This document shows, in pieces, positions 4,344 to 50,368 of a DNA stretch of 64,000 nucleotides. Below the pieces are notes generated by a model. That model was not told the origin of the DNA. It did no database searches and saw only the letters and a program-made list of their open reading frames with translations. The first letter of the stretch is position 1, and each line of letters opens with the position of its first letter. The stretch is from contig CAVVOP010000020.1 in assembly GCA_963749915.1 (NCBI GenBank), positions 128,001 through 192,000 on the forward strand. The letters are read 5' to 3'. The position numbers and the translations under genes are program-made. The stretch comes from an uncultured cyanobacterium. Its GTDB lineage: Bacteria; Cyanobacteriota; Cyanobacteriia; Cyanobacteriales; Cyanobacteriaceae.

Positions 4344-5258
4344 CTATTCTAATGTGATAATTGTGCCGCGATCGCCCCTTAAAATTTCCGCGACATCTTG
4401 CAACTGACCAATTGCCGCCATACCCATCGTCGTAGTCTTAGCCTTGACAAAATTACAAGCCGCTTCGACCTTCGGTTGCATCGAGCCAGGAGCGAAGCTA
4501 TACTTGCTTAACTGCTGTGGAGTTATTGTGGAAATTGGTTGGGCTTCTGGAGTACCCCAGTTATGGTAAACCGCATCCACATCAGTCAATAGCAGTAAGG
4601 CATCCGCCTGTAAATCCTTTGCCAGTAATGCTGTAGCTAAATCTTTATCGATAACGGCTTCAATGCCACAAATACTCCCTGCCGGAGTAACAACAACGGG
4701 TATACCACCACCGCCGGCACAGATGACCAATGCTCCCACTTTTACCAATAACCGGATTGTTGGTAATTCCAGAATGCGCTTGGGTTTGGGAGAGGGGACA
4801 ACGCGGCGATAGCCATTGCCATCGGGGGCCACTGCCCAACCTCTTTCTTTCGCTAAATGTTTAGCTTCCGTCTCTGAATAAACTGAACCAATGGGTTTAG
4901 TAGGACAAGCAAAAGCAGGATCCTCAGGGTTTACTTCGATCTGGGTGAGGAGAGTGACTATTTGTTTTTCTGGTAGTTGATTGCAGAGTTCTTGTTCGAT
5001 TAGATAACCGATCGCCCCTTCTGTCTCCGCATCTAGTACATCTAGGGGATAGGGCTTGACGCCCTTGTAGGCTTCGGCTTGCATTGCTAAAAGTCCCACC
5101 TGGGGTCCATTACCGTGGGTAACTACCACCTGATGTTCTCTAGCAACAACAGCGATGGCTTTGGCTGCCAGCTGAATATTTTGTCGCTGTATTTCTACTT
5201 CTGGAGGTTGACCACGCCTAATTAGGGCATTACCCCCCAAGGCAATAACTACGAGCAT
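4344..5258 (-). CDS. arcC: Carbamate kinase
   Basis: VIALGGNAL, THGNGPQVG, PTKPIG, YRRVVPSP, GGGGIPV, EAVIDKD, GSMxPKVEAA. Confidence 0.95.
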   Translation of the reverse strand: MLVVIALGGNALIRRGQPPEVEIQRQNIQLAAKAIAVVAREHQVVVTHGNGPQVGLLAMQAEAYKGVKPYPLDVLDAETEGAIGYLIEQELCNQLPEKQIVTLLTQIEVNPEDPAFACPTKPIGSVYSETEAKHLAKERGWAVAPDGNGYRRVVPSPKPKRILELPTIRLLVKVGALVICAGGGGIPVVVTPAGSICGIEAVIDKDLATALLAKDLQADALLLLTDVDAVYHNWGTPEAQPISTITPQQLSKYSFAPGSMQPKVEAACNFVKAKTTTMGMAAIGQLQDVAEILRGDRGTIITLE

Positions 5259-5264
5259 GATCGT

Positions 5265-6623
5265 CTATCCTCCCAAGTTTTTACGGGCGAGAAATTGCTC
5301 TATTTCGGCGGATAATCTCGGTTCTCCTCTCTCAGCAAATTCATAGTGGGCGCGGACCACTGGCTTATTAAGTGTCATCAGAGAACTAAGATCGCTGGGA
5401 GTGGCTGCCACTACTACGTCAGCTTCGGCATTGTTAATGGTATCCTCCAATGCTTTTAGTTGGGCGGGAAAATAACCCATGGCTGGCAATACCGGGCCGA
5501 TGTGGGGATAGCGGGCATAAACTTCGGCAATTTCTGGAGCAGCAGAAGCTCTGGGATCGACAATTGCTGCAGCGTGGGCACGAATAGCAGCTACATAGCC
5601 TGCACCATAGGACATGCCACCATGAGTGGTAGTCGGACCGTCCTCTACTACTAACACGCGACGATGGCACACTGCTTCTGGATTGTCCAACTGGATTGGG
5701 GAGGCACCACGAACAATCACTGCTTGGGGATTAACCTTCTTCACTGTATCGCTAACTCTCTGTATGTCAGCATCAGCTGCCGAATCCACTTTCGCAATAA
5801 TGACAATGTCTGCCATCCGCAACACGACTTCCCCTGGGTGGTGAGTAGTTTCATGTCCAGGACGCAATGGATCGACTAAAACAAGGTGTAGATCGGGTTG
5901 AATGAAAGGAAAGTCATTATTACCGCCGTCCCAGAGGATAATATCTGCTTCTTGTTCTGCTTTCTGGACGATTAACCCATAATCGACTCCAGCATAGACT
6001 ATGTTACCAACCGCTAGATGGGGTTCGTATTCTTCCCGTTCCTCAATTGTACACTCGGCTACATCTAAATCTCCTTTAGTCGCAAACCGTTGTACAATTT
6101 GCTTTTCTAAATCCCCGTAAGGCATGGGGTGACGGATAACTGCTACTCGCAAACCTTTTTCTCGCAGTAGCTTAGAAAGCCAACGGGTAGTTTGAGACTT
6201 ACCACAACCAGTCCGCACCGCAGAAACAGCGATTACTGGTACTTGGGCTGGTAGCATGGTTCGTTTGGGACCTAAAAGTAAGAAATCTGCACCCGCTACC
6301 ATTGCTCGCGATGCGAAATGCATCACTTGGGAGTGAGTCAGATCGCTATAAGCAAAGACCACAAAATCTATTTGCTCTCGACGACAAAGAGATTCTAATT
6401 CTGTTTCCTCAACAATAGGAATACCTTGAGGATAAAGGGAACCCGCTAGCACACAAGGATAGCGGCGATTCGCAATGCCCGAAATTTGTGCTGCGGTAAA
6501 AGCCACCACTTCCACTTCTTTGTCATGGCGGTATACCTGATTGAAATTGTGAAAATCTCGACCTGCTGCCCCCATAATGACAATTCTAGAAGGGGATCGA
6601 GCAGTACTACTTGGCGATCGCAT
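5265..6623 (-). CDS. arcE: Arginine synthetase (ArcE)-like P-loop protein; often annotated as cyclic 2,3-diphosphoglycerate synthase-like GTPase
   Basis: IMGAAGRDFHNFN, AVRTGCGKSQT, RHPMPYGDL, CTIEEREEYEP, WDGGNND, EDGPTxTHGGM; 6 bp upstream of arcC; start set at the ATG after GGAGG. Confidence 0.75.
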   Translation of the reverse strand: MRSPSSTARSPSRIVIMGAAGRDFHNFNQVYRHDKEVEVVAFTAAQISGIANRRYPCVLAGSLYPQGIPIVEETELESLCRREQIDFVVFAYSDLTHSQVMHFASRAMVAGADFLLLGPKRTMLPAQVPVIAVSAVRTGCGKSQTTRWLSKLLREKGLRVAVIRHPMPYGDLEKQIVQRFATKGDLDVAECTIEEREEYEPHLAVGNIVYAGVDYGLIVQKAEQEADIILWDGGNNDFPFIQPDLHLVLVDPLRPGHETTHHPGEVVLRMADIVIIAKVDSAADADIQRVSDTVKKVNPQAVIVRGASPIQLDNPEAVCHRRVLVVEDGPTTTHGGMSYGAGYVAAIRAHAAAIVDPRASAAPEIAEVYARYPHIGPVLPAMGYFPAQLKALEDTINNAEADVVVAATPSDLSSLMTLNKPVVRAHYEFAERGEPRLSAEIEQFLARKNLGG

Positions 6624-6871
6624 TTGACCCTCCATAAAATATATCCTTATAATCCTTTTATTTGTCGTCTTAACAGTTCGTTTTCATTTACTAAGAGCTT
6701 GGGTTCTAAGTCATTGCGCTCACTTTTAACAAAGGTTGTCCAGACCTAACCATTATACCATTTCTTTAAATAGTATTGGTTCCCTTGCCGTGAACAAATC
6801 TATCCTCATCCATGCCTATTTCTCCCATCCGTCTTGCCTCTTTTCTAACTTCAAAAGAAAAAAGAGCTTTT

Positions 6872-27985: not shown

Positions 27986-28245
27986 ATGATAAGGTAATTT
28001 AATTACTAAAAACTAGTTATTATCCTTAACTGTAACCTAAATTTTTGGGAAATCAACCCACTTTCTGCACGTCAAATTGTTTTTCAGAAAAAAGCTAAGT
28101 ATAAAGGTATTGAATCTTAATAAGATTTAAGGGGCTCTTTTTTTTGTTAAAGGCACGAAACCCTACTATCACAGGCATTTCGTCTCATAGAGATGTTTTT
28201 AATAGGGGGTCACTGACAAAAGGTACCATTTTTCTTAAAAAATAA

Positions 28246-28275
28246 TTGTCAAATCTGATACTTTTTTGTTATACT
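28246..28275 (+). promoter_or_regulatory. Sigma70-type promoter with overlapping NtcA-like box (repressor position)
   Basis: TTGTCA (28246-51), 18 bp, TGnTATACT (-10 at 28270-75); GTC-N8-TAC at 28248-28261, one mismatch to GTA-N8-TAC. Confidence 0.6.
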
Positions 28276-28291
28276 GAAGGCGTAAGGATAA

Positions 28292-28353
28292 ATCGTTCAT
28301 CTGCAAGAGCGGACGGAAGTAAGAAGTGATAAGTTCTTCTGAAGGAACGCGCC
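28292..28353 (+). ncRNA. Glutamine riboswitch, glnA-motif (type I) aptamer
   Basis: ATCGTTCA-[TCTGC aaga GCGGA]-CGGAAGTA-[AGAAG...CTTCT]-GAAGGAACGCGCC; P1 CGTTC/GAACG; E-loop AGTA/GAA. Confidence 0.9.
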
Positions 28354-28392
28354 TCGAGTCTAAGCCCATCAAAAATTAGAGGAGGCGGTATT

Positions 28393-28527
28393 ATGAACGC
28401 TAAACAAAATAATCTCGGTTCAATCAATCAAAAAGCTCGTTTGTTAATAGTTGATAATCGTCAACGTAAACACAATCGTCAAGCTAGTATGTTGGAAAGA
28501 TCTGCCAAACAAGTCGGTCTTCAATAA
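28393..28527 (+). CDS. 44-aa glutamine synthetase inactivating factor (IF7/IF17 core)-like protein; absent from the ORF track
   Basis: MNAKQNNLGSINQKARLLIVDNRQRKHNRQASMLERSAKQVGLQ; AR..NRQ.SML.R.A...G pattern; SD AGAGGAGG. Confidence 0.85.
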   Translation: MNAKQNNLGSINQKARLLIVDNRQRKHNRQASMLERSAKQVGLQ

Positions 28528-28629
28528 TTTATTATGAACTGTGTTGGTAGTTGGAGTAAAGTACTTTGGGCTCCAGCTATCAGTGTCAATGGAAAAAGTT
28601 CTTTCGTTCATTCAATTAGGAGTATAATC

Positions 28630-28782
28630 ATGATTAGTAAAAAAACTGCACAGGGTGCCATTCAAGCTCATAGAACCACTTTACTTAAAACTCTCGAACA
28701 TCGTTTAGAAGTAGCTAAATCCAAAGGACAAACTGCATTGATAGCCCAGTTAGAGGCGGAAAAAAGTTATTATCTGAAGTAG
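28630..28782 (+). CDS. pirA: PII-interacting regulator of arginine synthesis PirA (50 aa)
   Basis: AHR..L.K.LEHRLEVAK.KG...LI..LEAE pattern; AGGAG RBS before ATG 28630. Confidence 0.8.
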   Translation: MISKKTAQGAIQAHRTTLLKTLEHRLEVAKSKGQTALIAQLEAEKSYYLK

Positions 28783-28994: not shown

Positions 28995-29897
28995 TTACGT
29001 TAGAGCTTCGAATCCCGCTACCACATCTAATAATTCTGAAGTAATTGCACCTTGGCGTTGGCGACGATATTGAGTCTTAAGCTCGTCAAGACGTTCTTCA
29101 ATATTTTTCTGTGCCGATTGCATGGCGGCAAGGCGACTGGCATTTTCGCTTGCTAGGGAAGCCGCTAAGGCTCGATAGAGGGAGACAAACAGGTATTGGC
29201 TAATTAGTTCCGAAAATAAGTCTTGCCAGTCCATCGTAAAAATTGGTATGACGGAAGTGTACCAGGGTTTCTTTTCTAGGGAAAGCAACCAATGAGGATC
29301 GAGGGGTAATAACTGTTGTTTACCAGAGCAATAGGAAGAACCAGAGATGGGCTGGTTATAAAATAGCAGAATCCTACCAATTTGCTCCCTTTGTTGCCAA
29401 CTTTCCAGCATCAGTAGAATATTTCGTACCGTTTCGCCAATGCTGATGGCAGAGGTAGGAAGAGTAAATTGTTCTGTGATTTGATACTGAGTTGTTTTGA
29501 GATGAGGTAATAAACGAGAACCCACAGACCCAATCAAAATTGGTTTAAAGTTAGGAAATTGTCCCAGATACTCTCTAGCATATTGCGTAATTTGTTCATT
29601 AAATTGACCACACAATCCTTGATCAGAGCCAAAAATAATCGCCCCTATTTTTTTTGTTTCAGGAAGATCAAGGGTTTCTTTTAAGTTTAAGGAAAGGGGT
29701 TCACCCGCAAAATATCGTTCTCGCAGGAGAATTTGAAAGCCCATTTCAACAGTACGGTTGTATTCAGCTAAAGATTCTACTGCCCGTTCGTACTGACGAA
29801 TACTCACAGCCGCAAGAACTTTCATCGTCTTGACGACGGAATATAAATCTTGAACACCGTCAATGGTAGCTTTCAGGGATGCAGGGGTTATAGACAT
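28995..29897 (-). CDS. atpG: N-type (alternate) F-ATPase gamma subunit
   Basis: SVVKTMK.LAAVSI.QYE, GSDQGLCGQFN, ASENASRL.AMQ, RQ.AIT.ELLDV. Confidence 0.92.
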   Translation of the reverse strand: MSITPASLKATIDGVQDLYSVVKTMKVLAAVSIRQYERAVESLAEYNRTVEMGFQILLRERYFAGEPLSLNLKETLDLPETKKIGAIIFGSDQGLCGQFNEQITQYAREYLGQFPNFKPILIGSVGSRLLPHLKTTQYQITEQFTLPTSAISIGETVRNILLMLESWQQREQIGRILLFYNQPISGSSYCSGKQQLLPLDPHWLLSLEKKPWYTSVIPIFTMDWQDLFSELISQYLFVSLYRALAASLASENASRLAAMQSAQKNIEERLDELKTQYRRQRQGAITSELLDVVAGFEALT

Positions 29898-29953
29898 AAT
29901 TTTTTACTCTAGTTTTCTTCAGATACCAAATTGTTCTGTTTTTATTTTTCTCT

Positions 29954-31522
29954 TTAACTGGGAAGATTTTTGTTTCTATCCTTGCTATTGTGGTCAGATT
30001 TAAATAATTTACAGACCTCTTCACATTTATTTAATAACTCTTTTTTGGCTTGGTCCCTCAGAAATTCTCCCGACTCGATACAAGTGCAGATTGTGGATAG
30101 TTGCTCAATAACTATCTGACGAATGGCTATTTCTGCCTCCCTAATTCTTTCTAAAGGTACCTTGTCTAAAATGCCCTCATTTAATGCCAAAAGTACAGCT
30201 ATTTGTTCAGCAACTGAGAGGGGCTGAGATTGGGGCTGTTGGAGAATCTCACGAACACGCTTTCCCCGTTCTAAGGTTTGGCGAGTATCCTCGTCTAATT
30301 GAGTACCAAATCGGGCAAATACTTCTACTTCCTGAAACTGAGAATAAGATAATCGTAGTTCTCCAGCAACTTCTCTATAGGCAGGTAATTGGGTTTTGCC
30401 ACCCACCCGGGAGACGGATTTCCCCACGGATACTGCCGGCATGATTCCTTTGCGATAGAGGTCAGGAGATAAATAAATTTGACCATCAGTAATTGAGATT
30501 AAGTTGGTAGGAATGTAGGCGGAGATATCTTGAGCTTGGGTTTCCACAATGGGCAGTGCCGTCAAAGAACCACCGCCCAACTCCTCTCGTAAATGGGTGG
30601 AACGCTCTAGCATCCGTGAATGAATGTAAAAAATATCCCCTGGATAGGCTTCTCTGCCGGGAGGACGACGTAATAAAAGGGACAGTTCTCGATATGCCCA
30701 AGCATGACGGGTAAGATCATCATAAACGATTAAAACATCCTGCCCTCGTTCCATAAAGTATTCTCCCATGGAAGTGGCAGCATAGGGAGTAATGTATTGC
30801 AAGCCCGGAGGATCTTCTCCATCGGCTACGACCACAATTGAATACTCGAGGGCATCTCCTTGTCGAAGTTGTTCGATCACTTTCGCCACCGCTGAGGTAC
30901 GTTGACCAATGGCACAGTAGATGCAAATAACATCTTTTCCTTTTTGATTGAGAATAGTATCCACGGCGATCGTTGTTTTACCTGAGGAGCGATCGCCCAA
31001 GATTAACTCTCGCTGTCCTCGTCCCACTGGAATCAACGCATCTACTACTTTCAACCCAGTTTGCAGAAGAACTTCCACTGGAGCACGATCGATAAATGGT
31101 GGTGCTTTACGTTCCATGGGTAATCGTTCTCTCGTGATGATCTTTCCCCCTTCGTCCAGGGGACGACCAATGCCATCAACAATACGTCCTAAGAGGGCTT
31201 TTCCCACTGGTACTTGCAAAATTTGTCCCCTACGCTCTACTTCCTGACCTGCGCTTAAATGCTCACTGTCGCCTAATAAAATTACTCCTAATTCGTCAAT
31301 ATCTAAATTAAAAGCGATGCCTAACACTCCTCCTTCAAAGCAAATCAGTTCATCGACTTTAACTCTTGGCAAGCCAACTACTTTGGCAACTCCCTGATCT
31401 ATGGATTTGAGAATCCCCATTTCTTGTGGTTGGATTTGAAGATGATGTGTTTCTAATCCTTGTTCAAATTTAGTAAATGTTCGCTCCAGAAATGTTTGTA
31501 ATGAGCTTATTTTCGGGTTCAT
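29954..31522 (-). CDS. atpA: N-type F-ATPase alpha subunit
   Basis: [37 protein letters not shown]. Confidence 0.95.
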
Positions 31523-31601
31523 AGTTTACTCCATCTTGAGATAGACTATTTTTGAGTTTGGCTGTGGAAATTTAAACAAAATTTTGGTTATTTTTATATT
31601 G

Positions 31602-32351
31602 CTAAAAAACTTCAAGATATTTCTCAATGGAGAGCAAATAACTCTTCAAATTCCAAGCAATTTTATAATCACTAGCTTGTAGCTCAATGCCACAAATTAA
31701 TTCTGGTACGGTAGCAAATTCTACTTTGTTACCCTGGTAAATTTGTTGGTGATATAAAGAATTCAAAATCTTTTGGCGACTTTCTGGAGGAACCTCGAAA
31801 CTAGTGTGAATCACTAATCCCTGATCCGATTTTTGGAGGGATTGAGCTAGGGATCGTCGTTCTTGTTGATCCAGATTTTCCAAACGACGAATAAAAGTCA
31901 AGATCACCTGCTGCTCTAAAGAAAAATCTGCCAGTTCTTGGAAAGCACGGCGAGTAATCTCATACACTTGCTGAGTTAATTTTTGTTGTAGATTTTCGAA
32001 AAATTGCTCTTGCTGTTGAGCGATCGCTTCTTTCCAAGCGGTTTGTTTTTCCTTGACTTGCTGACGTGCTTGTTTGACCAAATTATGATACTCTTCCTCC
32101 CCCTCTTTTTGAGCTTGAATCATAATTTCTTGCCGTTTTTGCTGTAACTGCCGTTGTTTTTCCTCGTATAAGACTGCTTGTGCTTCAGCTACTTCTTGTT
32201 TTTCTCTTGCTTCTTGCCAATGGCGATCGATTTCCTCCTGTCGTGCACTAATGGTTTTAATTATCGGTCGATATAAAAAGCGATGTAACAAAAAAACCAG
32301 AATCAGAAAATTGGCCAGTTGGGCGATAATGGTAAACCAATCAATTAACAA
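31602..32351 (-). CDS. atpF: N-type F-ATPase b subunit (long, b-delta-like)
   Basis: MLIDWFT..AQ..NFLILV.LL.RFLY.PI; C-terminal LICGIEL...KIAW. Confidence 0.9.
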   Translation of the reverse strand: MLIDWFTIIAQLANFLILVFLLHRFLYRPIIKTISARQEEIDRHWQEAREKQEVAEAQAVLYEEKQRQLQQKRQEIMIQAQKEGEEEYHNLVKQARQQVKEKQTAWKEAIAQQQEQFFENLQQKLTQQVYEITRRAFQELADFSLEQQVILTFIRRLENLDQQERRSLAQSLQKSDQGLVIHTSFEVPPESRQKILNSLYHQQIYQGNKVEFATVPELICGIELQASDYKIAWNLKSYLLSIEKYLEVF

Positions 32352-32354
32352 GGT

Positions 32355-32630
32355 TTAGCCTCCATTTTCTACAAAATGATTCCAAAAAGGGTTGGCAAAA
32401 ATCAAAATCATCGAAACCACAAAACAATAAATTCCCGTCGATTCCACTAATGCCAAACCGACAAATAGAGTTCGAGTAATAGTATTTGATTGATCTGGCT
32501 GTTGTGCAAGAGCTCGCATGGCATTAGCCAAAGCCAACCCTTCACCAATTGCTGGGCCAATTGCACCGATGGCCATAGTAATACCAGATGTAATAATTGA
32601 AACCATACCGATTAGACCGAGATTATCCAT
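32355..32630 (-). CDS. atpE: N-type F-ATPase c subunit with Na+-type ligand motif
   Basis: GPAIGEG, QQPD loop, ESTGIY; start at MDN after AGGAG. Confidence 0.93.
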   Translation of the reverse strand: MDNLGLIGMVSIITSGITMAIGAIGPAIGEGLALANAMRALAQQPDQSNTITRTLFVGLALVESTGIYCFVVSMILIFANPFWNHFVENGG

Positions 32631-32713
32631 TAAAATTGCTCCTGTTCCAATCACAAGAAAAAACTTCTCTTGCTTGATTCTATATTTAATATGGTAAAGT
32701 CATGTAGATAAAC

Positions 32714-33001
32714 TCAATCGAAATGTAAAGAAATGTGTGCTTTTGCCCTGGCATAGGTATAGGCATTCAGGTGGTAAAGACCGACATACTTCATCTCGTC
32801 GTAGCCCTGGGCATTGGGCAGTGCGTAATCTGCCTCACCCAGGTGCCATTTGCCCGTGAAAAAGGTGCGGTAGTCTGCCTGTTTCAGCACGGAGGCCAGC
32901 GTCCACTCTGTTGCGGGTAAGCCGCCGCCATAAGGACCGAGATCGCCATAGCCTGTGTCATCAGTCACAAGCAGAATAATGTTTGGTTTTTTGTCCGGCA
33001 T
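32714..33001 (-). pseudogene. Arylsulfatase remnant (internal deletion and 3' truncation)
   Basis: KPNIILLVTDDTGYGDLG and GKWHLG present, but the CxPxR catalytic segment between them is missing; 95 aa only. Confidence 0.85.
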
Positions 33002-33031
33002 TGTTTTGTCTCTCCATTAAATGGTCATTAG

Positions 33032-33052
33032 TTGGCAGGATTCACCTGCCAA
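33032..33052. terminator. Perfect 8-bp hairpin, possible terminator or stabiliser
   Basis: TTGGCAGG-attca-CCTGCCAA. Confidence 0.4.
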
Positions 33053-33078
33053 TGGATTTAATTGCGTATCCGTTTGAT

Positions 33079-33810
33079 CTAAATTGAGACTTCAAAAGCT
33101 ACTCCCTCACAAATAAACTGAGGATAATTAGTTAAAATATTTTGTCTTTCTTCTTCCCCTACAAAAATATATGTACCGACTTGTTGACTATTTTGAAAGC
33201 GATAAAAATCAACCCCTTTATTGGCATCCCCGTTATAGACATAAAAGGCAATACCTTCCTCCATAAAATTGGTATAGTTGGCACGAATACTAATACTTTC
33301 TGATTCTCCTGCATAAAGATAAGTACCGGGTATATCTTTATTTTGAAAACGATTCATCACAATTAAATCATCATCAGGTGCGATCGCTACTTTAAAAGCC
33401 TCGCCTTCTTCGGTAAAGTTAGAATAATTAGCAATAATACTTTGTCTTTCTTCTTCCCCCACAAAAATATAAGTACCCAAGACATCAGTATTTTGAAACC
33501 GATAAATAGGATTATTTAATAGATCATCAATATTATCATCTCCACGATTGGCAATATCATGGCTCAAAATTTGTAAATTATCCTCACCATCAGCAATGTA
33601 AATATATTCTTCAACCACTGTTAAAGCGTTTGCATTACCAAGAGTATCATAAGAGTCAATGAGAGAAATATTATTAGGATCACTAATATCGATGATTTCT
33701 ACTCCTTCTTGATTAGTGAGATAAGCATAGTTTCCAACTACCTCAAGGTCTTTAGTAGGATAATTGTTATCATAAGAACCTATGGTATGAGGATTAGCTG
33801 GATCACTAAT
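33079..33810 (-). pseudogene. 3' fragment of a surface/secreted protein with LVIVD repeats and three C-terminal YRFQN...GTYIFV repeats; cut by the IS end
   Basis: VVGNYAY, VEIIDISDP repeats; frame begins exactly at the IS left end (ISDPANP). Confidence 0.75.
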
Positions 33811-35312
33811 CTGACTTTTCACGGCATCTCTGAAAGGCACTCTGGAAAGGCATTATAGACTTAGGGCAGTTTTTGAGGTAGAGTAAAGAAAAACTAGTGA
33901 GTAGAGGTAAAAAAATGTTGGATTGGTGGATGAAAAACTTTGCCAGTTGTGACTTGGGAGACGAACGTTTGAACGACAGAGCCTTCTTAATAGGCAAAGC
34001 TTTAAGTCAAGGATTTGGCAAAGCACTCTCAGAAATATTTAAAAGTGCTAATGAGTTAAAAAGGTCATATGAATTTTTGCCAATTTAAAAACAAATTTTG
34101 CCAAGATAATATGGCCGCATTGTCAAATGACAATCGCCGCCGTTGAAGAACATAATACTATTTTATCGGTAGGAGACACTACCTATCTTGATTATCGTGG
34201 AATTAAGGAAAAAAAGGAAGGGTATGGACCGACCGGTAATGGTGGGAATGGCTTAATTCTTCATAGTTCCCTAGGAATAGACCCCCAAATAGGACAAACA
34301 ATCGGATTACTGTGGCAAAAACTTTGGAATCGCGACCACAAACCCAAACCCCCCAAAGATGAAACAGCAGAAGCAAAAAAAGAACGTCAAAAACTTGCCA
34401 GAAAAGCTGCACGTCAAAGACCTTTTGAAGATAAAGAATCCTATAAATGGGTAGAATCCATTAACGAACTAGAAAAACAAGTAGACGTTTCAACCAAGGT
34501 GATTCATATCTTTGACCGAGAAGGAGATATTACAGAAGTTTTTGATAAAGTACGTCAATGCAAACATACAGGAATAGTGGTAAGGGCAGCACATGACCGC
34601 AGTTTAAATGCTGATAGCGAAAGACTTTGGGCAAAAATGGAATCAATACCTATTAATTTTGAACAAGAGATTGAGATCCCTGCTACCCCTAAACGTCGAG
34701 CTCGTAAAGCTAAATTAGCAGTGCGGTTTTCTCAAGTTCAACTGCGAGTACCATTAAGATTTGACTGTCGTGATCCCTTAAATGTCTACGCAGTTTATGC
34801 TACAGAAATCGATTGCCCAGAAGGGGAAACTCCTTTATCTTGGATGCTTTTAACCACAGAAGTTGTAGATTCAATAGACATGGCTGCAACCATTCTCAGA
34901 TGGTACACTTACCGTTGGCATGTAGAGAAGTATCATAAGATTTTAAAATCAGGTTGTCAAGCCGAACAGTATAGACTTGCTGCTGATGGGATGAAAACTT
35001 TATTAGGTTTTTTAAGTGTTATTGCGGTTGAACTCTTACAGGTAACTTATCTCCATCGTACTCAGCCAGAAGCTCCTGCTATTTCTATTCTTAACCCTGT
35101 TCAGGTTGAAGTTTTAAAAGCCAAATCTAGAAAACTTCCTCCTGTTTTAACTATATCTTGGGCAGTAGAGGCTGTTGCTTCTCTTGGGGGTTATCTTGAA
35201 CATCGACGTAAGACCCCTATTGGTATCCAAGTTCTCTGGCGTGGTTGGTTAAATTTACATGAACTATGTGAAGGCTGGAAGCTTGCAAAAAGCACTTAAC
35301 GTGAAAAGTCAG
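33811..35312 (+). mobile_element. IS4-family (IS50/Tn5-like) insertion sequence, about 1.5 kb
   Basis: 13-bp terminal inverted repeats CTGACTTTTCACG; internal DDE transposase; no matching target duplication. Confidence 0.92.
33915..35299 (+). CDS. IS4/Tn5-family transposase split by a -1 frameshift near 34074-34078
   Basis: ORF1 LGDERL..R (Tn5 DNA-binding N-terminus); ORF2 GDTT, DREGD, W.LLTT, Y..RW.VE.YH..LK (YREK); adding one T to GAATTTTTG fuses them as EFFAN. Confidence 0.85.
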
Positions 35313-49386: not shown

Positions 49387-50250
49387 CTACTGTCTTTCAA
49401 CTTCTGCCTCCTTTTTAGGATTGCTATCCTTTAAATCGGTTGATTGAGAGAAAATGGGCTTGCGAGTTTTCAAGTTAAAGCGGAATCCTTGAGGTAAGAT
49501 GTGCAACCTGACTCCACACACCGCCATCGCTTCATCTTTGAGCAGTTCGCCTAAATTATCATAAGTTGCCTCTGATTCATCGACAACTGTTACAGCCCCA
49601 CGCCCCACCACTTTAAATTCGTTACCGTCCACAATTACTGCTGTATCTTCGTCAATGCCAAAACCTAAGTTAGCTGGCTGCTGTAAGAGAGCGGAAATCA
49701 GGCGACCTAACCGTCCGCGCTGAGCAAAATGCTGATCGATCACCACTGAGTGCAAAAACCCCATTCCCGACCCCATTTCTATCGCGTCCAAGCGTGGATT
49801 GGTTTCGGAGTCTCCTTCAACAATCATAAAATCGGGCATTATGGCAGCACCTGCACTCGTACCACCGATCACCATTCCTTCCCGATTGCGTTGGTGCAGT
49901 AAGGTATCTAGCTTAATTCCCTTGATGTATTCAATGATATTGGCTTGATCTCCTCCTGTAAAAAACACTCCTGTGGCTTCTTCAATAATTTTCAGTTTTT
50001 CTGGATCATCCGCATCTTCCCTGTGAATGGTATTGACAACACGCACATCCTCGACACCAAGCCGTTCAAACACTCGGGTATAGTCTTCTCCAGACTCACG
50101 AGGCTCGCTTGTTGCCGCCGTTAACACGGCAATTTTAGCTTGAGTCCCACCAGCACAGCGAACAAACTCTCGCAAGATTTCACAATCTTCTTCTTTGTCT
50201 TCTGCTCCACCAATGATGACTAATTGCCCCCGCTCTTTTGTGGATTCCAT
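49387..50250 (-). CDS. cphB: Cyanophycinase (peptidase S51)
   Basis: LVIIGGAEDK, FFTGGDQ, GGTSAGA, DQHF.QRGR.GRL, GIDEDT; start at MESTK after AGGAG. Confidence 0.88.
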   Translation of the reverse strand: MESTKERGQLVIIGGAEDKEEDCEILREFVRCAGGTQAKIAVLTAATSEPRESGEDYTRVFERLGVEDVRVVNTIHREDADDPEKLKIIEEATGVFFTGGDQANIIEYIKGIKLDTLLHQRNREGMVIGGTSAGAAIMPDFMIVEGDSETNPRLDAIEMGSGMGFLHSVVIDQHFAQRGRLGRLISALLQQPANLGFGIDEDTAVIVDGNEFKVVGRGAVTVVDESEATYDNLGELLKDEAMAVCGVRLHILPQGFRFNLKTRKPIFSQSTDLKDSNPKKEAEVERQ

Positions 50251-50368
50251 ACAAAAACTCCTTGAATAACTAAACAGCACAAAAACAGAAATTGTAACCG
50301 TTCACATTCCCCCTAACCCTCGACGAGAAATGAATAGTTTCGGCAAATTGACAGGGGGAATGAAATAA

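Follow-up and report, generated by a model that had tools for sequence, protein, structure and literature searches.

A glutamine riboswitch, a 44-residue protein of the inactivating-factor family and a second PirA occur in conserved order in cyanobacteria

In a 64,000-nucleotide stretch of DNA from an uncultured cyanobacterium (the window), a glutamine riboswitch aptamer is followed by a gene for a 44-amino-acid protein of the glutamine synthetase (GS) inactivating-factor (IF) family and then by a second copy of pirA. The aptamer, the complementarity between an anti-Shine-Dalgarno (anti-SD) segment and the Shine-Dalgarno (SD) sequence, purifying selection on both genes and their conserved order carry our main conclusion, that this rearrangement of known parts is real, under selection and widespread, and apparently undescribed. 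Below, 'mini-IF' denotes the product of the 44-amino-acid ORF and its homologs, 'unit' the aptamer, mini-IF and pirA in that order, G000 the genome carrying the window and f1 the family of G000. On one side of the unit lies a divergent B12-radical-SAM gene, on the other a convergent gene for ATP synthase gamma, which belongs to an alternate-type F1F0 operon. Its features are the following.

28246..28275, plus strand: predicted sigma-70-type promoter from a consensus scan (-35 TTGTCA, 28246-28251; -10 TATACT, 28270-28275)
28248..28261, plus strand: NtcA-like box GTC-N8-TAC, overlapping the -35 and centred near -28, a repressor-type position
28292..28353, plus strand: type-1 glutamine riboswitch aptamer (glnA motif, RF01739; 55.2 bits, E 2e-9)
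28350..28387, plus strand: expression platform, in which anti-SD CGCCTC (28350-28355) can pair with the mini-IF SD GAGGCG (28382-28387)
28393..28527, plus strand: 44-aa mini inactivating factor, IF17-like and apparently internally deleted (arginine positions, relatives, dN/dS 0.13-0.25)
28544..28583, plus strand: intercistronic hairpin without a U tract (spacer fold -23.0 kcal/mol, z -2.2)
28618..28622, plus strand: pirA's own SD, AGGAG, read from the sequence; relatives likewise have an SD-like purine run ahead of pirA
28630..28782, plus strand: 50-aa PirA paralog, the second copy (NF050139, PirA_Argsyn; 65.9 bits, cut-off 50)

Models of cyanobacterial nitrogen control are built on Synechocystis, which has gifA, gifB and pirA as separate genes; the unit represents another wiring of this control in at least 12 of the order's families. 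A sequence-only reading of the stretch had presented the arrangement as not known to it from model strains, and we likewise found no published description, with coverage thin for subscription journals, so that an earlier mention is possible. The unit is absent from the accessible portions of PMC6212724, PMC8092223, PMC6316151, PMC9196836, PMC11848123, PMC10939160 and 10.1101/2021.07.27.453982. Aptamers in front of genes without a Pfam match were noted by Klahn et al. (PMC6212724), and the protein downstream of the aptamers of C. aponinum PCC 10605 and C. stanieri PCC 7202 is given as 'none identified' in that 2018 survey. The unit accounts for these two survey aptamers without an assigned protein.

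Distribution of the unit

Synteny in relatives, which had been proposed as a check on the first reading, speaks for the unit. We inspected the full set of 64 riboswitch matches from 61 related genomes; 23 of them head the unit, in 19 of the 20 f1 genomes and in G036, G044, G045 and G055; the lone f1 genome without it is 67% complete. An order-wide search of 401 genomes with a profile of 25 short proteins (E 1e-11 or better) matched 55 genomes, its 60 matches comprising 49 mini-IFs (47 genomes, 10 families) and 11 proteins that are gifA-type or unclear. Together with G007, G019 and G045, the 49 mini-IFs make a table of 52 loci, in which the aptamer lies upstream in 51 (the remaining one is at a contig edge) and pirA downstream in 50, one of these pirA genes being broken; pirA is absent in G308 and G828. 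Since the loci were picked by the short protein or by the aptamer, the association with pirA is not a product of the selection, with the limit that related genomes are not independent. In family f7, aptamer and mini-IF occur in five of 351 genomes. Counting f7 and f27, the unit is present in at least 12 of the order's families, f1 and 11 others.

Mini-IF homologs number 134 proteins, all annotated as hypothetical among the 120 listed. Named sources include C. aponinum, C. stanieri, Rippkaea, Gloeocapsopsis, Hydrococcus and Chlorogloeopsis, and the mini-IF of the window matches named Geminocystis records at 82-86%, which suggests that f1 corresponds to the Geminocystis/Cyanobacterium lineage. 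A pattern scan of genome contigs, an insensitive method, returned five loci, of which one is a weak match outside the cyanobacteria. Among the loci examined from a class-wide search of 301 genomes with a narrower, earlier profile, the unit was not found outside the order; the 26 next-best loci examined there (L084-L109) are gifA or gifB.

Several loci depart from the common form. Full units of f7 (L246, L248 and L249; 3 of 351 genomes) have pirA 27-28 nt downstream of the mini-IF, and the other two of the five f7 genomes (L245 and L247) have aptamer and mini-IF without pirA. With an intact mini-IF, pirA is broken or missing at L176 (G308), L178 (G251) and L181 (G828), all from one genus with genomes of 2.5-3.1 Mb. 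G802 holds three copies of the unit (L177, L180 and L191). The f7 units and the homologs from Chlorogloeopsis occur even though the 2018 survey reports no aptamer in the heterocyst-forming strains sampled (PMC6212724).

The riboswitch and the mini-IF

The glnA-motif aptamer recognised in the first reading was borne out by the covariance model: RF01739 matches over its full length (positions 1-53) and well above the gathering score of 35. It is the only Rfam match above threshold in the window, and the only RF01739 match in the G000 genome. The mini-IF starts 40 bases 3' of the aptamer, behind GGAGGCG. Among the 51 aptamer-bearing loci, the anti-SD is complementary to the SD in 50; the pair CGCCTC/GAGGCG is identical in 43, four loci have a G-U variant, three a compensatory variant (all from one genome, G802) and one has another form. 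The fold predicted for the G000 leader without ligand has the mini-IF SD paired, and holding the anti-SD single-stranded in silico opened the SD in part only. Klahn et al. (2018) postulate that glutamine binding melts such an anti-SD helix in gifB (PMC6212724). Judged by this layout, the riboswitch very probably gates translation of the mini-IF.

Ten glutamine riboswitch matches (L038, L048, L058, L062-L064, L070-L072 and L075) precede a hydrophobic protein of 67-75 aa that is unrelated to IF or DUF4278 and may be a further recurrent target of this riboswitch.

The unannotated 44-aa ORF had been read as an IF-family gene, and the comparison with relatives sustains this assignment: it recurs, it keeps the three arginine positions of the family and its dN/dS is low. 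Arg16, Arg29 and Arg36 of the mini-IF align with Arg8, Arg21 and Arg28 of G000's own IF7 proteins, of whose 36 core residues only 12 and 14, respectively, are identical to it. Three arginines in IF spacing are kept in 50 of 50 complete mini-IF ORFs, a count in which G019 was checked by eye (the pattern was mis-anchored) and which does not include the truncated G007 or G048, cut by a contig end. Three arginines are essential in IF7, and R110, K102 and an 82-residue N-terminus are named for IF17 (PMC6316151). Subtracting these 82 residues places R110 of IF17 at R28 in IF7 numbering. We take R8 and R21, which align with Arg16 and Arg29 of the mini-IF, to be the other two critical arginines of IF7; a literature search turned up no paper that names R21 or R28 of IF7. 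Pooled pairwise dN/dS of the mini-IF is 0.13 across seven genomes of the genus and 0.25 across 17 of f1; for pirA the corresponding values are 0.17 and 0.19. Both genes are thus under purifying selection, and it is practically certain that both are real. A frameshifted gifA pseudogene was considered as a source of the ORF and rejected, given the low dN/dS and a stop 7-14 residues past the third arginine in 47 of 47 mini-IFs.

The mini-IF conforms to neither known IF class. Against the IF7A profile (NF052599) it gives a partial match of 33.4 bits, below the cut-off of 70, and GifA is about 65 aa long with a C-terminal tail, a form that the mini-IF does not have. It matched no Pfam family, DUF4278 (PF14105) included, so its placement in the IF17/gifB class by that domain fails; only a remnant of the first residues of DUF4278 is seen in homologs. 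K102 and the N-terminal region strengthen IF17 (PMC6316151), and the mini-IF has no equivalent of either.

With gifB (Synechocystis sp. PCC 6803 sll1515, IF17; PMC6212724) the unit shares the aptamer family, the anti-SD/SD layout, an IF core with the three arginine positions and N-terminal residues that resemble the start of DUF4278. It differs in that the mini-IF has 44 aa, with DUF4278 almost entirely gone and neither a K102 equivalent nor a C-terminal tail, and is followed by pirA, and in that its NtcA-like site lies near -28, versus -7.5 in gifB. The likeness to IF7/GifA (Ssl1911; Anabaena IF7A) consists in a small basic protein (pI 11.8 for the mini-IF), arginine spacings of 13 and 7, and an NtcA-like site at the gifA-type position. 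Here the differences are the profile score (33 of 70 bits), the tail after the third arginine (8 residues, compared with 33-39 in 31 gifA), the riboswitch upstream and the presence in G000 of two true gifA genes besides the mini-IF.

Three lines of comparison suggest that the mini-IF derives from gifB/IF17, as it appears by internal deletion. It has the gifB-type leader of aptamer plus anti-SD. At their N-termini, 114 homologs are similar to the opening 12 residues of 24 DUF4278 proteins, with a mean score of 1.0 against -8.8 +/- 0.4 for shuffled leaders (best shuffle -7.3), the score being somewhat inflated by a general Lys bias at position 2. Finally, 7 of 12 full gifB proteins end 7-12 residues past the third arginine, as mini-IFs do. 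In a tree of the IF core, 46 of 47 mini-IFs fall on one branch (support 92/49), next to two long-branch gifB rows; with 35 columns, long branches and five changes for gifB, this tree does not by itself fix an origin from gifB. The mini-IF of G054, which is not accompanied by pirA, is placed among gifB, which suggests a second deletion within the limits of the same 35 columns. If the mini-IF does derive from gifB, its riboswitch would have been inherited and not newly gained.

We consider it likely that the mini-IF inhibits GS. The alternative, that the 44-aa protein no longer regulates GS and has taken on another role, for example as a partner of the PirA of the unit (PirA2) or of PII, would fit its separate branch in the tree, a family-specific invariant Arg23, its score below the IF7A cut-off and its travelling with pirA in 50 of 52 loci. 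However, the three arginine positions of the IFs are themselves among the invariant columns, the mini-IF persists without pirA in four genomes, and full gifB was not found in f1; we regard such a change of role as unlikely. A PDB sequence search with the mini-IF profile gave no matches at E up to 1, and a complex prediction with two GS chains and the mini-IF alignment, scoring 0.00 with controls not folded, is given no weight for or against. As a GS inhibitor, the 44-aa protein would be a natural minimal construct for mapping the binding of IFs to GS.

The mini-IF and pirA of the unit add to known genes. G000 also encodes two full 66-aa IF7 proteins (gifA) and a standalone 54-aa PirA (contig C30); both gifA genes and the standalone pirA have a perfect GTA-N8-TAC box and no riboswitch. 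The unit therefore replaces neither gifA nor pirA, and the first reading is to be corrected in that its genes are extra paralogs and not relocated gifA and pirA. A gene joining DUF4278 to an IF core (full gifB) was not present among 30 examined of 31 DUF4278 matches in the 20 f1 genomes. Against this absence, Table S1 of PMC6212724 lists one gifB each in C. aponinum and C. stanieri, strains of f1; this gifB is probably a DUF4278-PirA-like fusion. Outside f1, G121 has retained the unit alongside a gifB behind a riboswitch.

DUF4278-PirA-like fusions of 125-142 aa are found in most f1 genomes (L010, G000:C8:329025-329411, minus strand; L110-L127). The fusion encoded by G000 has 133 aa, and its gene carries a GTC-N8-TAC box like that of the unit. 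N-terminally extended PirA-like proteins, left by Bolay et al. as possible misannotations (PMC8092223), appear to be such fusions. G000 further encodes an 84-aa DUF4278 protein that ends at the point where gifB would continue into its IF core; this gifB-like gene (L009, G000:C21:178433-178687) has no riboswitch, adjoins a 398-aa transposase-like ORF and may be a decayed or acquired gifB.

The pirA paralog and its transcript

The 50-aa ORF described earlier as PirA-like scores above the NF050139 cut-off and is upheld as a PirA family member. Like Ssr0692 (Bolay et al. 2021, PMC8092223) it has 50 aa; it differs in belonging to a second paralog group, located downstream of riboswitch and mini-IF, and is a predicted PII binder. 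For Synechocystis PirA, ADP-dependent PII binding that competes with NAGK has been demonstrated (PMC8092223). In a tree of 49 proteins from the unit and 34 standalone proteins (34 of 41 standalone loci were used and seven dropped; the broken G251 pirA was left out; 52 columns), the two labels need one change, against a mean of 26 after shuffling, with weak support (71/75). This fits a single old duplication, short of proving it. Of the 34 standalone pirA genes, 27 have a perfect NtcA box within 300 nt upstream, and none has a riboswitch or IF gene there. An 82-aa PirA starting at the in-frame ATG 28534 was also considered; this start has no SD, it is changed in a near-identical strain contig that has a 4-nt insertion in the spacer, and the PirA proteins of relatives have 50-51 aa, so it was discarded.

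We consider it highly likely that mini-IF and pirA are co-transcribed. The spacer between them, 102 nt in G000, measures 83-230 nt inside f1 and an operon-like 13-46 nt in 30 of 31 loci outside it. Metatranscriptome X1 contains a 583-nt contig of a relative (depth 198.5) that begins at 28293, after 22 extra letters, and spans both genes; between the first gene and pirA it has 135 unlike letters, and it continues for 72 letters past pirA. The 22 letters at its start are presumably sequencing adapter. Other X1 pieces over 19.9 kb, among those listed, have depths of 2-9, with 17 at one joint in the ATPase alpha gene; given these depths, the 583-nt contig is unlikely to stem from genomic DNA. A contig from a second study bridges 28473-28726. 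Assembled contigs are only a hint of a single transcript, the runs having been chosen because they hold the stretch and the long contig coming from a relative; runs X2, X4 and X5 gave short pieces only and are uninformative on co-transcription, and uncovered stretches were not read as silent. The claim of one unit thus stands as to the conserved order and the RNA that bridges the spacer in a relative, and falls short of proof as to the single transcript.

That pirA2 is merely a neighbour with its own promoter, the riboswitch unit being monocistronic, could be argued from the long and variable spacer in f1 and from G018, where a spacer hairpin is followed by a T run. Yet the G000 spacer contains no promoter-like site and no perfect NtcA box; of 19 f1 spacers, five have promoter-like matches, whose positions are scattered, and one has a perfect NtcA box. 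The short spacers elsewhere leave scant room for a promoter, and RNA contigs bridge the spacer. We therefore hold separate transcription to be very unlikely. No canonical terminator was seen 3' of pirA in G000, the sole one in the scanned region lying upstream, at 28181-28195. The spacer hairpin of G000 has counterparts in the family, with a fold z of -2.0 or less in 9 of 19 f1 spacers.

Whether glutamine reaches the second gene of a shared transcript is a different matter. The anti-SD helix reaches the mini-IF SD only, so glutamine could control pirA only by an indirect route, and we think it rather doubtful that it does. One such route would be that the riboswitch controls both genes through translation and access of RNase E: without glutamine the whole mRNA would be degraded, making PirA2 glutamine-responsive. 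The gifB riboswitch of Synechocystis is cleaved internally by RNase E, and the hypothesis of a dual action has been put forward (10.1101/2021.07.27.453982; PMC10939160). G007 (L026) keeps aptamer, SD helix and an intact pirA around a mini-IF cut to a stub of 34 codons, and in G036 (L065/L235, G036:C80) a riboswitch directly heads a DUF4278-PirA fusion. Set against this, pirA in f1 has its own SD 83-230 nt 3' of the first gene, often behind a hairpin that possibly shields it, and aptamer and mini-IF occur without pirA in G308, G828 and two f7 genomes. These four genomes indicate that the mini-IF is a riboswitch target in its own right. Control of both genes is accordingly a tentative option beside the reading we prefer, in which the riboswitch gates the mini-IF and PirA2 is translated independently.

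Promoter and possible nitrogen control

The promoter-like site upstream of the aptamer has 10 of 12 consensus matches and an 18-nt spacer. Three such sites occur in the region, compared with 3.9 in shuffles, no excess over chance by itself; a similar -10 lies at equal distance from the aptamer in other f1 members. Transcription would start near 28282, as inferred from this site.

The NtcA-like box that the first reading saw over the -35 is present and kept in 15 of 19 f1 loci, 44 nt 5' of the aptamer; it is imperfect (five of six consensus bases, one mismatch to GTA-N8-TAC) and occurs at none of 30 loci outside f1. One-mismatch sites are expected by chance in about 0.25 of 80-nt windows in the G000 genome, so the case for NtcA rests on position and conservation. 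One f1 locus has a perfect GTA-N8-TAC at the position of the box. Its TAC half falls between -35 and -10, a stretch in which the sigma factor is not expected to constrain the sequence, and its centre agrees with the NtcA repressor sites of gifA at -28.5 to -30.5 (PMC6316151). On these grounds NtcA seems reasonably likely to repress the promoter of the unit in G000.

Outside f1, a motif of roughly TACGGTTYTCT-CC-A-TGACAGAAG lies about 70 nt 5' of the aptamer (L082, L141, L163-L165, L169-L173 and L246-L249), with a perfect GTA-N8-TAC inside it in two genomes. This could be a distal NtcA site or a site of another regulator.

Taken together, we lean towards a bicistronic mRNA on which the riboswitch-gated mini-IF would brake GS and PirA2, from its own SD, would damp arginine synthesis via PII. 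Under nitrogen limitation, NtcA would sit over the -35 (in f1 only) and the mini-IF SD would be sequestered. After an ammonium upshift, the fall of 2-oxoglutarate would open the promoter and yield the bicistronic mRNA; PirA2 would be translated, bind PII and damp arginine synthesis. The mini-IF would be made only when glutamine rises and melts the anti-SD helix, and would then inhibit GS, standing in for gifB as the glutamine-gated GS brake in f1. Since PirA holds back arginine synthesis (PMC8092223), the two functions coupled by the unit would both be brakes. The proposed coupling of GS shut-off to arginine synthesis is to be corrected in this sense, with the pairing of two nitrogen-upshift effectors retained. 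Likewise, dual input from NtcA and glutamine would at best be an f1 trait and would apply to the first gene, with pirA served by a separate SD, 102 nt farther on and past a hairpin.

A farther-reaching version, which we offer as speculative, is that glutamine sets the level of PII-sequestering PirA, that the mini-IF is a third, minimal class of GS inhibitor replacing IF17 in f1, and that glutamine control of PirA domains arose twice, once in this unit and once in a DUF4278-PirA fusion behind a riboswitch. Glutamine would then, beside 2-oxoglutarate, set flux into arginine and cyanophycin. The unit offers a direct handle on whether glutamine sensing reaches the PII-NAGK-arginine branch.

Two genes or groups of genes with nitrogen-related products lie 21-24 kb from the unit in the window, namely carbamate kinase with an unassigned 456-aa neighbour (4344-6635) and cyanophycinase (49387-50280), a proximity that is probably coincidence. 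Next to the unit, the alternate-type (N-ATPase-like) F1F0 operon occupies 28995-32654 and 32714-35299, with only gamma, alpha, b and c seen here. Upstream of the F1F0 genes are a short sulfatase-like fragment, read from its ORF, and an IS4 transposase, and the operon may be split.
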